Shown: positions 61,167 to 63,638 of the stretch, piece by piece | Position numbering within the stretch: the stretch's first letter is position 1 | Layout of the letters: each line of letters opens with the position of its first letter | Made by a program: the position numbers and the translations under genes | DNA from: a virus | Taxonomy: Duplodnaviria > Heunggongvirae > Uroviricota > Caudoviricetes | DNA length: 64,000 nt | Direction: 5' to 3' (one strand) | IMG/VR virus record: IMGVR_UViG_2684623127_000006 | Notes under the pieces: model-generated | Databases searched by the model: none | Told to the model about the DNA's origin: nothing | Seen by the model: only the letters and a program-made list of their open reading frames with translations

Positions 61167-63638
61167 ATGAGTAAAGTCTTTATTTGCGCCGCCATTCCGG
61201 ACGAACAGGCAATAAAGGAAGAAGGTGCCGTCGCTGTAGCCACTGCCATTGAAGCCGGTGATGAACGTCGCGCCCGCGCAAAATTTCACTGGCAATTCCT
61301 GGAACATTATCCGGCTGCTCAGGACTGCGCTTATAAATTTCTTGTTTGCGAGGATAAACCCGGTATACCCCGCCCTGCCCTCGATTCCTGGGATGCTGAA
61401 TATATGCAGGAAAACCGCTGGGATGAGGCGTCTGCTTCCTTTGTCCCGGTCGAGACTGAATCCGATCCGATGAACGTCACTTTTGACAACCTGGCCCCTG
61501 AAGTACAGAACGCTGTCATGGTTAAGTTCGACACATGTGAAAACATCACTGTTGATATGGTGATTAGCGCACAGGAATTGTTGCAGGAAGACATGGCAAC
61601 ATTCGACGGCCATATCGTTGAAGCGTTGATGAAAATGCCAGAAGTTAACGCCATGTATCCGGAGCTTAAGCTGCATGCCATCGGGTGGGTTAAGCATAAA
61701 TGTAAGCCTGGTGCCAAATGGCCCGAAATTCAGGCAGAGATGCGCATCTGGAAAAAACGTCGCGAAGGTGAACGCAAGGAAGCCGGAAAATACACGTCTG
61801 TTGTTGATCTCGCCCGCGCCAGAGCCAATCAACAGCACACTGAAAATTCAACAGGAAAAATCAACCCGGTCATTGCTGCCATTCATCGCGAATACAAGCA
61901 GACATGGAAAACACTGGATGACGAACTGGCCTACGCTCTCTGGCCTGGTGATGTGGATGCCGGAAACATTGACGGCAGCATCCATCGCTGGGCAAAAAAT
62001 GAAGTTATCGACAACGGCCGCGAAGACTGGAAGCGTATCTCGGCATCAATGCGCAAACAGCCTGATGCCCTTCGCTACGACCGCCAGACTATTTTTGGCC
62101 TTGTCCGTGAACGTCCGATCGACATTCACAAAGACCCTGTGGCACTGAACAAATACATTACTGAATACCTGACTACAAAGGGCGTGTTTGAAGATGAAGG
62201 AACAAATCAGAGCGCAACTGATACTCTCTCGTCGCCAGTACCAGAAACTGATGCAGTGGAAACGGCAATTCCAGACAACGAAAAAACCGAATGCAAAGTG
62301 GAAGTCGAACCATCTGTAGAACGTGAGGGGCCGTTCTACTTCCTCTTCACCGACAAGGATGGCGAAAAATACGGTCGCGCAAACAAACTTTCTGGTCTGG
62401 ATAAGGCGCTGGCTGCCGGGGCTACTGAAATCACAAAAGAAGAATATTTTGCCCGAAAAAATGGCACATACACAGGCTTACCGCAAAATGCAAATACCGC
62501 ACAAAATTCTGAACAACCAGAACCGGTAAAAGTTACCGCTGACGAAGTAAAGAAAATTATGCAGGCAGCCAATATCAGCCAGCCTGACGCCGAGGAACTG
62601 CTTGCAGTATCACGTGGTGAATTTGTTGAAGGGATTAGCGACCCGAATGATCCGAAATGGGTTAAGGGGATCCAGACCCGCGATTCTGTGAACCAGAACC
62701 AGCAAGAAACGGAACAGAACGACCAGAAAGCGGAACAAAACAGCCCAAATACGCAACAAAACGAGCCAGAAACGAAACAACCTGAACCAGTAGTGCAACA
62801 GGAACCGGAAAAGATCTGCACCGCCTGCGGTCAGAGCGGTGGCGGCAACTGCCCTGATTGTGGTGCGGTGATGGGTGACGCAACATACCAGGAAATATTC
62901 GATGGAGAGAATCAGCCTGAAGTTCAGGAAAATGATCCGGAGGAAATGGAAGGTACTGCACATCAGCACAAGGAGAACACTGGCGGCAATCAGCATCATG
63001 CCAGCGATAGTGAAACTGGCGAGGCGTCAGATCCCTTAATTAAGGCGAACGGTCATCATAATCTCACATCCACCAGCAGAGCGGGGATTCATCTGATGAT
63101 CGATCTTGAAACCATGGGAAAAAATCCCGATGCCCCGATTATCTCAATAGGTGCAATATTTTTCGATCCGCAAACCGGAGATATGGGACCGGAATTTAGT
63201 AAGACTATCGATCTGGATACTGCTGGCGGAGTCATTGATCGGGACACCATGAAATGGTGGCTTAAACAATCACGCGAAGCGCAATCTGCCATTATGACCG
63301 ATGAAATCCCGTTAGATGATGCACTGTTACAATTGCGGGAATTTATCGACGAAAACTCCGGTGAATTTTTTGTTCATGTCTGGGGAAATGGAGCCAACTT
63401 CGACAACACGATTTTGCGCCGTTCATACGAACGGCAGGGGAGCCCCTGCCCGTGGCGTTACTACAACGATCGCGATGTACGCACAATCGTTGAGCTGGGG
63501 AAAGCCATAGACTTCGATGCCAGAACGGCTATTCCATTCGAAGGTGAGCGCCATAATGCACTTGATGACGCCCGTTACCAGGCAAAATACGTTTCAGCTA
63601 TCTGGCAAAAACTGATCCCGAGTCAGGCTGATTCTTAA
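61167..63638 (+). CDS. RecE-like protein with C-terminal DEDDh 3-prime-5-prime exonuclease domain
   Basis: 823 aa; middle segment LLAVSRGEFVEGISDPNDPKWVKGIQTRD as in RecE; C-terminal motifs IDLETMG, HVWGNGANFD, HNALDDARY. Confidence 0.65.
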   Translation: MSKVFICAAIPDEQAIKEEGAVAVATAIEAGDERRARAKFHWQFLEHYPAAQDCAYKFLVCEDKPGIPRPALDSWDAEYMQENRWDEASASFVPVETESDPMNVTFDNLAPEVQNAVMVKFDTCENITVDMVISAQELLQEDMATFDGHIVEALMKMPEVNAMYPELKLHAIGWVKHKCKPGAKWPEIQAEMRIWKKRREGERKEAGKYTSVVDLARARANQQHTENSTGKINPVIAAIHREYKQTWKTLDDELAYALWPGDVDAGNIDGSIHRWAKNEVIDNGREDWKRISASMRKQPDALRYDRQTIFGLVRERPIDIHKDPVALNKYITEYLTTKGVFEDEGTNQSATDTLSSPVPETDAVETAIPDNEKTECKVEVEPSVEREGPFYFLFTDKDGEKYGRANKLSGLDKALAAGATEITKEEYFARKNGTYTGLPQNANTAQNSEQPEPVKVTADEVKKIMQAANISQPDAEELLAVSRGEFVEGISDPNDPKWVKGIQTRDSVNQNQQETEQNDQKAEQNSPNTQQNEPETKQPEPVVQQEPEKICTACGQSGGGNCPDCGAVMGDATYQEIFDGENQPEVQENDPEEMEGTAHQHKENTGGNQHHASDSETGEASDPLIKANGHHNLTSTSRAGIHLMIDLETMGKNPDAPIISIGAIFFDPQTGDMGPEFSKTIDLDTAGGVIDRDTMKWWLKQSREAQSAIMTDEIPLDDALLQLREFIDENSGEFFVHVWGNGANFDNTILRRSYERQGSPCPWRYYNDRDVRTIVELGKAIDFDARTAIPFEGERHNALDDARYQAKYVSAIWQKLIPSQADS

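Follow-up and report, generated by a model that had tools for sequence, protein, structure and literature searches.

What does a prophage protein do when it is built on the middle part of RecE and stands in the operon slot of recE, with an exonuclease domain of another kind at its C-terminus and no RecT encoded beside it? The question is raised by a gene at positions 61167..63638 (+) of a 64,000-nucleotide stretch of DNA (IMG/VR virus record IMGVR_UViG_2684623127_000006), here called the window, which spans two adjacent prophages of Escherichia coli O157:H7. Of these two, the prophage next to ynfA carries the gene, and this host element is shown to be a lambdoid prophage of the CP-933P/Qin type at the ynfA site. 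The original prediction, drawn from the sequence without database searches, described a RecE-like protein whose nuclease domain is replaced by a DEDDh domain, which is followed directly by an xis-like gene, lacks a recT partner and has an unclear role.

The gene is a single intact ATG-start open reading frame (ORF) of 823 amino acids, as found in the ORF list, and its product matches PHROG family phrog_2082 ('exonuclease') end to end at 1841 bits. Because YdfE of E. coli K-12 is 96% identical to the window protein over residues 1-256, the window ORF is the intact form of ydfE, which in the Qin prophage of K-12 is a pseudogene interrupted by the insertion sequence IS2E (IS2). Relatives at least 90% identical carry PF27430 and PF27432 (with PF16473) in precomputed annotation, and the YdfE_N and YdfE_C domains were assigned through these homologues; the Pfam copy scanned directly has neither model. 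The features of the ORF are confirmed as lying far above chance expectation. PGAP names the gene 'exonuclease' or '3'-5' exoribonuclease domain-containing protein'. The label 'exodeoxyribonuclease VIII', often wrongly given to it, would mislead annotation pipelines and recombineering searches that rely on it, since it implies a 5'-3' RecE-like enzyme and a RecT partner, both of which are wrong.

The C-terminal part, residues 642-813 (63090..63605, +), is recognized as a DEDDh 3'-5' exonuclease domain of the DexA/Rv2179c family. These residues match the Pfam family Rv2179c-like (PF16473) over 2-177 of its 177 profile positions (E=3.6e-66; 222.7 bits, cutoff 27), and RNase_T is a weak second match. 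The catalytic residues D646, E648, D746, H796 and D801 align with D7, E9, D119, H186 and D191 of T4 DexA, and the five columns are invariant across the eight sequences aligned (DexA and seven stand-alone relatives). An AlphaFold2 (AF2) model has predicted local distance difference test (pLDDT) values of 78-93 over residues 641-819, and the model and Foldseek agree on an RNase H-like DEDD fold. Against the PDB, T4 DexA (8KEN/8KEL) comes first, at E=2e-11; the other matches, RNase T, oligoribonuclease (Orn), Cas2-DnaQ, REXO2 and Cap18, are all DEDDh enzymes like it, and DexA, RNase T, Orn, REXO2 and Cas2-DnaQ have probability 1.00. By sequence, too, the closest solved protein is DexA (phmmer, E=2.3e-5). 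The domain search that the original prediction had proposed as a check found no lambda-Exo/RecE-type fold, its best structures being T4 DexA, RNase T and oligoribonuclease, and Pfam detected no PD-(D/E)XK family (RecE about 606-866; PF12684) in the window protein. Judged by residues and predicted fold, the domain is shown to have an intact DEDDh active site and to belong to the T4 DexA/Rv2179c family, from which 3'-to-5' polarity, Mg2+ dependence and action most probably on DNA ends would follow.

The relatives of this domain are instructive in their differences. DexA (exonuclease A), the closest solved structure, aligns at all five DEDDh residues; it is only about 26% identical, stands alone at 227 residues, comes from a virulent phage and has extra loops. 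Rv2179c of Mycobacterium tuberculosis, the founder of PF16473, belongs to the same Pfam family and differs in being cellular, stand-alone and, by the Pfam description, an exoribonuclease. Stand-alone DnaQ-type exonucleases of the same early-left operon (epsilon34 gp34, LLS gp34 and Salmonella P0110) are 55-58% identical to the C-terminal domain. Two of them, LLS gp34 and Salmonella P0110, lie directly before xis and int, as the window gene does; all lack the fused scaffold, and the epsilon34-like ones are flanked by Erf, SSB and Abc2. A literature search on Rv2179c in prophages or on PF16473 returned nothing, and papers on ydfE held transcriptome mentions only.

The remainder of the protein is a scaffold of two parts. 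YdfE_N occupies residues 1-260 (61167..61946, +), assigned by PF27430 on homologues at least 90% identical, and includes a folded unit at residues 1-205 with pLDDT 83-94 in the AF2 model; a fold search with this model gave no significant structural match. YdfE_C, the RecE-like middle, occupies residues 261-625 (61947..63041, +; PF27432 on homologues) and is modeled as folded units at residues 245-340 and 388-435, followed by acidic and glutamine-rich linkers of low confidence. These models were built from an alignment with 125 diverse homologues; a shallow alignment left residues 1-640 at pLDDT below 50. That the middle resembles RecE, as the original prediction had it, is borne out by BLASTP against K-12 RecE, in which window residues 262-625 match RecE 278-591 at 38% identity (E=2e-58). 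The alignment is strongest, and nearly continuous, over residues 476-625 and ends before the RecE nuclease domain. Common to both proteins is a zinc-ribbon-like Cys4 motif, CTACGQSGGGNCPDCG in the window protein (residues 551-566; 62817..62864, +; CTACG...CPDCG), which aligns with CNACGQTGGDNCPDCG in RecE; metal binding by it can only be presumed, because the motif is modeled at low confidence. With the NCBIfam RecE equivalog model (PRK09709/NF007259), whose cutoff is 1269 bits, the protein reaches 273.8, and for this reason we regard it as only partly RecE-like: the N-terminal and middle region is homologous, and alleles with the same scaffold carry the RecE nuclease. For RecE itself the limits of the nuclease domain, which has been crystallized, are described, and the function of the N-terminal region is given as unknown (PMC11611040).

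How the two halves came together can be read from alleles that share one half each. The proteins P0227 and P0234 (900 aa) are 92% identical to the window protein over residues 1-640 but end in PF12684, the RecE-type nuclease; most close homologues of residues 1-640 end in PF16473. The P0227 locus (an E. coli relative) reads dicB - DUF1482 - [YdfE_N, YdfE_C, PF12684] - RecT - Lar - DUF1187 - Exc - Int, and blastn of the window against this locus (L007) gives 95.6% DNA identity over 60394-63040 and none beyond. Identity to the RecE-nuclease/RecT-type allele stops inside the ORF at a mosaic breakpoint at 63040..63041 (unstranded), about codon 625 and 17 codons upstream of the DEDDh domain. On the other side, Salmonella prophages carry a stand-alone DEDDh gene of 189 residues, 58% identical, directly upstream of a DUF1233 excisionase (Xis) and integrase (Int), and its DNA similarity to the window starts at codon 643. 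In the window, too, the next gene is a DUF1233 excisionase (63711..63962, +; Pfam PF06806, E=1.6e-31; PHROG 539), the xis-like gene of the original prediction, and in the identical O157:H7 locus the integrase follows just past the window end. Because identity to the P0227 type ends at 63040 and the Salmonella DEDDh gene stands alone before Xis and Int, DEDDh-Xis-Int is a module joined in frame to the scaffold. What the comparison shows is a chimera that arose when, from a breakpoint within the ORF onward, the right-hand module was exchanged as a whole and in frame, 'DEDDh - DUF1233 Xis - Int' replacing 'PD-(D/E)XK nuclease - RecT - Lar - DUF1187 - Exc - Int'. A Chi site, GCTGGTGG, lies inside the gene at 63070..63077 (-; pattern search), 30 bp from the breakpoint at 63040; its closeness may be coincidental.

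The exchange is one of several. An exhaustive search of 1.84 billion representatives found the scaffold in 245 clusters only, and among 48 long scaffold clusters, scored as 50%-identity representatives, either kind of N-module (YdfE_N-type or RecE-N-type) is seen with either kind of nuclease (DEDDh or RecE-type), so that all four pairings exist, as does a further class without a recognizable nuclease. Members of this third class (including P0250, P0254, P0258, P0286, P0302, P0308, P0354, P0379, P0387 and P0391) are 700-800 residues long, come from Enterobacter, Klebsiella, Citrobacter and Pantoea, and have a conserved domain of about 190 residues and a coiled coil instead of the nuclease. It is probably these that Zheng et al. 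2025 (PMC12315714) call 'RecE-2' proteins. By eye, the motifs SINAEYMIMRATExFGPxGxGWG and KKSLTDAxKKALSxLGFSADVWLGLYD in their tails resemble Rad52-type annealases. An assignment as Rad52-like annealase gained no support: Pfam Rad52_Rad22 reached only 17.7 bits against a cutoff of 20.3, a PDB profile search with the tails matched nothing, and a hidden Markov model of the tails missed genuine Rad52-like phage ORFs.

Two E. coli proteins, P0074 (261 residues) and P0241 (527 residues), show that the gene is still being rearranged: internal deletions have fused YdfE_N directly to the DEDDh domain, in part or in full. Near the fusion point, at 63076-63098, a GGGGA Shine-Dalgarno-like motif lies 8 nucleotides before an in-frame ATG at codon 644; the stand-alone Salmonella DEDDh gene also has this motif ahead of its start (L008, about 5986-6003). 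PGAP sometimes annotates 180-residue proteins beginning MIDLET. It is possible that an internal start at codon 644 could yield a free DEDDh exonuclease.

RecE, which in the Rac prophage is paired with RecT, occupies the same operon slot, after cell-division inhibitor genes and before xis and int. It has the homologous middle with the Cys4 motif, and some alleles share the first 640 residues at 92%. It differs in its PD-(D/E)XK 5'-3' nuclease (RecE 606-866), which is absent here in favor of the DEDDh 3'-5' domain, and in its downstream company, the window gene being without recT, lar and DUF1187: in place of an adjacent, overlapping recT, xis follows directly. The absence of any annealase partner, also claimed at the outset, was confirmed by tblastn: two RecT sequences, Erf, SSB, Abc2 and the nuclease domain of RecE, used as queries, matched nothing in any frame of the 64-kb window and nothing in eight other DEDDh-fused loci (L001, L004, L005, L062, L067, L068, L075 and L078); control loci yielded the expected genes. 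A recT gene farther downstream in the full prophage was looked for in the PGAP annotation of the identical locus, and none is present. In both prophages that annotation contains no RecT, Bet, Erf, Rad52-like protein, Sak4, SSB or Gam, the absence of Gam and Bet resting on annotation alone, as their own sequences were not searched. Phages mEp460 and Tritos have the same neighbors as the window, again with no annealase.

Elsewhere the DEDDh domain keeps other company. With tblastn it was found in 843 phage records, and gene orders range from Kil - (Arf-like) - Erf - SSB - DEDDh - Abc2 in epsilon34 to YfdP - YfdQ - ... - DEDDh - Xis - Int in LLS. A neighbor census covered 63 non-T4 viral loci in 27 sequence clusters, with Erf recovered by phmmer seeds. 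By locus, Erf is found in 21 of 63 and an SSB gene abuts the exonuclease gene in 24 of 63, about a third; by cluster, 5 of the 27 have Erf, 2 a Rad52-type annealase and 1 a Sak4-type AAA_24 protein, and 14 integrase ORFs lie within 5 kb (about half of the clusters). The DEDDh family is a recurrent, not an obligatory, companion of annealase and SSB genes, and very often stands beside int.

Modules of this composition have been described. In the main text of their survey of lambdoid Rec modules, Zheng, Casjens, Davidson, Amundsen and Smith (Genome Res 2025; PMC12315714) state that these can carry genes for DnaQ-like 3'-5' nucleases, regard the DnaQ nuclease of epsilon34 as a legitimate Rec-module member, mention sporadic DnaQ genes near int together with 'RecE-2' proteins that have no nuclease domain, and define a 'Tritos' functional type of four phages with a nuclease only and 7-21 top-strand Chi sites. 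There the Tritos-type phages and the DnaQ-carrying LLS are grouped with Chi-rich phages proposed to rely on host RecBCD and Chi. The nuclease of Tritos is essentially the same gene as that of the window, with 92.9% DNA identity and the neighbors dicB-ydfD-gene-xis-int, the difference being that the window gene is in an O157:H7 prophage. The Tritos-type module has a nuclease and Chi sites and is without annealase, SSB or anti-RecBCD function (PMC12315714), and a nuclease without annealase, SSB or anti-RecBCD gene is likewise what PGAP and tblastn with RecT, Erf, SSB and Abc2 found here, Gam and Bet being covered by annotation only. That the Tritos nuclease is a RecE-scaffold/DnaQ chimera is not stated in the main text of that paper. 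The gene is in this sense already catalogued, by PGAP, Pfam, PHROG 2082 and the 'Tritos' Rec-module type (PMC12315714); new here are the exact breakpoint, the evidence for a module swap with its combinatorial mosaic, the prevalence figures and the residue-level comparison with DexA and EcD.

A pattern search of the window finds 15 Chi sites against 2.5 expected from shuffles. The target prophage has six: those at 44560, 49303, 57661 and 63070 lie on the '-' strand, the other two on the '+' strand. We take the '-' strand as the equivalent of the lambda top (active) strand because the order int-xis-...-Q-lysis-terminase reads on it, and with the strands so equated the prophage just attains the threshold used in PMC12315714, at least four top-strand sites. 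The part of the neighboring prophage that lies in the window (1-15800) is strikingly rich in Chi, with seven sites on the '-' strand and two on the '+' strand within about 15 kb, and there is no annealase there either.

The gene is among the commonest prophage genes of E. coli. Of the 5426 complete E. coli genomes searched, 4068 (75%) have the DEDDh segment, at 8097 places and up to 7 per genome, and 1750 (32%) have the RecE-nuclease plus recT segment, at 1841 places; in this species the gene usually takes the DEDDh form. Copies that are full-length and 90-98% identical are found in the infective phages mEp460, Tritos, HannyBb, PhiR42_1, PPompW and Evi. Intact forms of 816-830 residues dominate the protein clusters, one 823-residue cluster alone holding 23,183 member sequences. 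Against phage Tritos, the ratio of nonsynonymous to synonymous substitution rates (dN/dS) is 0.27 for the whole gene, 0.10 for YdfE_N, 0.30 for the middle, 0.42 for the RecE-like segment and 0.35 for the DEDDh domain; purifying selection acts on every segment.

Our preferred reading, to which we give a probability of about 0.45, is that the protein would serve as an accessory 3'-5' DNA exonuclease, trimming ends, tails or flaps in a phage that leaves recombination to host RecBCD and RecA. By its family membership the DEDDh domain would degrade DNA 3'-to-5' in a Mg2+-dependent manner, a polarity opposite to that of RecE, and would remove rather than create 3' tails. Because an enzyme of this polarity cannot make the 3' tails that an annealase needs, the protein is unlikely to be half of a RecET/Red-type pair. 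Phage recombination may instead be left to RecBCD and RecA, since there is no annealase, SSB or RecBCD inhibitor and Chi sites are present in the active orientation. The exonuclease, tethered by the same scaffold that carries the RecE nuclease, might trim phage DNA at its 3' ends or tails, for instance to make ends acceptable to RecBCD or to clear 3' flaps. In E. coli, 3' single-stranded DNA exonucleases such as ExoI, ExoX and SbcCD make 3'-tailed ends blunt, which allows RecBCD to load, and we propose by analogy that the phage enzyme may act in a similar way. A link to recombination is suggested because Erf, SSB and DEDDh genes (with or without Abc2) are packed end to end in epsilon34 and in about a third of the viral loci. 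One scaffold, 92% identical between alleles, bears nucleases of opposite predicted polarity, and for that reason its role should not depend on RecE chemistry or on RecT. The natural domain swap is in effect a ready-made experiment on what the N-terminal part of RecE, about 600 residues, does, and the gene is a concrete candidate for studying the use of host RecBCD by Chi-bearing lambdoid phages that lack a recombinase of their own.

Several points weigh against this proposal. The four top-strand Chi sites only just reach the threshold, and the density of Chi in the prophage (6 in about 44 kb) does not exceed the average for the E. coli chromosome; for this last reason we treat the Chi evidence as supportive rather than compelling. 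Polarity and substrate are carried over from relatives at 26% (DexA) to 37% (EcD) identity, and the description of the founding member, Rv2179c, as an exoribonuclease makes an RNA substrate conceivable. Fold comparison of the scaffold gave no functional clue. Only about 8 of the 27 clusters have an annealase gene beside the DEDDh gene and about half have an integrase within 5 kb, and because of these proportions nearness to int may be the real constant. In addition, the main text of the Rec-module survey notes that the usual effect of 3'-5' DnaQ-type exonucleases on homologous recombination is inhibition, and calls one-gene Rec modules 'somewhat suspect' (PMC12315714).

The main rival, which we consider unlikely, is that the protein is an anti-phage superinfection-exclusion nuclease of the EcD or 'HREX' type, which would degrade modified T-even DNA, for instance that containing 5-hydroxymethylcytosine (5hmC), and spare the host. 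Kang et al. (NAR 2025; PMC12153337) solved the structure of DexA and found that its stand-alone E. coli homologue EcD, supplied on a plasmid, degrades 5hmC T4 DNA and protects cells against T4. EcD belongs to the same Rv2179c-like/DexA family, lies in a mobile element near an integrase, has the same catalytic residues as DexA and the window domain, and is 36.6% identical to the latter (E=1.7e-36), both being more distant from DexA. It differs in standing alone at 189 residues and in having Ala (A78) at the equivalent of DexA D90, where the window protein retains Asp (D718), a tetramer contact. The 5hmC-recognition residues of DexA are not conserved, W152 and D169 corresponding to Y766 and A780, the position of the D169 counterpart being uncertain because the alignment is at only about 26% identity; DexA S87 aligns with P715. 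Nor does the setting suit exclusion: the gene sits in a repressor-controlled early-left operon with DicF and dicB and has no evident separate promoter, unlike a moron in a lysogen-expressed position, and a PADLOC scan for known defense systems gave only a weak generic DEDDh match (E=3.4e-5). Exclusion would also leave unexplained the fusion to a RecE scaffold and the presence of the domain in Erf-SSB modules. Less likely again is a broader idea, in which the scaffold would serve lambdoid early-left operons as a platform for general delivery, bringing exchangeable effectors (a 5'-3' PD-(D/E)XK nuclease, a 3'-5' DEDDh nuclease or the third domain of about 190 residues) to one target, be it DNA ends, the replisome or RecBCD, the DEDDh version serving either an unrecognized, RecBCD-coupled, annealase-free mode of phage recombination or HREX-like exclusion. 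If true, it would account for the DEDDh form outnumbering RecET about fourfold in E. coli.

The early-operon position is typical of phage host-takeover genes, and the fold neighbors include oligoribonuclease/REXO2, Cas2-DnaQ and the CBASS-associated Cap18, so that a counter-defense or clearing enzyme is conceivable, one that would remove single-stranded DNA or RNA with a 3'-OH (retron multicopy single-stranded DNA, reverse-transcriptase cDNA, nanoRNA) or trim host DNA early in infection; the Gabija anti-defense gene Gad1 does lie near one DEDDh locus. The argument is purely circumstantial, with no known anti-defense family matched and no consistent defense or counter-defense partner in the census, and we hold it to be improbable. 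To an exoribonuclease acting like Rv2179c on phage or host transcripts, such as processed dicBF operon RNA, we assign a still lower chance: RNase T and oligoribonuclease are close in fold, the gene is co-transcribed with the DicF small RNA, and both the best Pfam family and one PGAP name point to RNA, but the closest structure and the only characterized phage or E. coli relatives (T4 DexA and EcD) are DNA exonucleases, and the domain is fused to a DNA-recombination scaffold here and packed with Erf and SSB in other phages. Annealase-dependent recombination would require the annealase to be supplied in trans by another O157:H7 lambdoid prophage, or as a domain hidden in the scaffold. Stand-alone relatives in Erf/Rad52-SSB modules, the 1750 E. 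coli genomes that carry recT elsewhere and the faint Rad52-like motif in the tails of the third scaffold class speak for this, and we place it lower than the exoribonuclease. Least probable of all is that the gene is a functionless mosaic by-product, carried along with xis and int and decaying. It is frequently disrupted, by IS2 in K-12 ydfE, by IS1203 in many O157:H7 genomes and by the deletions in P0074 and P0241; against decay stand the purifying selection in all segments, the dominance of intact forms, the invariant catalytic residues and its retention in infective phages.

The EcD sequence used above (189 residues, MIDTETLGNG...TTPFLNI, with A78) was recovered from viral contigs through the forward-primer word, while the reverse-primer word had no exact match in the viral or representative-genome collections; the reverse primer as printed in the supplement of PMC12153337 has one extra A relative to the gene. 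In the contigs (L115 and L118, about 3460-4050) EcD lies in an integrase-bearing mobile element, where its operon also holds a Dam-like methylase gene and a large ORF of primase/helicase-like type. EcD is not an ordinary chromosomal gene.

In the window the gene order is ydfC - DicF - dicB - DUF1482/ydfD - gene - xis - int, and the dicBF operon of K-12 Qin has the matching order dicB-ydfD-ydfE. The small RNA DicF (60472..60523, +; Rfam RF00039, 76.7 bits against a gathering score of 48) marks a dicBF-type early-left operon. It is followed in the same operon by dicB, encoding a cell-division inhibitor (60698..60886, +; ORF translation, and PGAP in the identical locus), and, immediately upstream of the exonuclease gene, by a ydfD-like DUF1482 gene (60883..61074, +; Pfam PF07358, E=7.8e-25; PGAP; K-12 order). 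The order DEDDh-DUF1233-Int recurs around the stand-alone Salmonella gene. Candidates for a promoter or terminator of the gene's own were rejected, the scans being no better than on shuffled sequence. Between the repressor region and ydfC-DicF-dicB lie a RelB/RelE-type toxin-antitoxin pair (58663-59188, +) and a small zinc-ribbon gene of the ECs_2282 family (59618-59824, -), and PGAP annotates RusA and a DUF968 protein in the nin region.

An element named IS1203 splits the identical gene in many O157:H7 genomes, and the window copy is whole. A copy of the IS1203/IS629 type is present in the window at 53329-54640, apparently within a DUF977-family gene; in JEONG-1266, EC4115, TW14359 and other O157:H7 strains an element of this type cuts the exonuclease gene instead, at about codon 362. 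The neighboring prophage carries, at 13686-14930 (+), a 414-residue N-terminal fragment of the RecE family, of the K-12 RecE-N type and not YdfE_N, which stops before any nuclease domain. It sits in a dicB-DUF1482-X-int slot, with an integrase fragment adjoining at 14912-15463, and in the identical locus PGAP annotates it as a RecE-family pseudogene.

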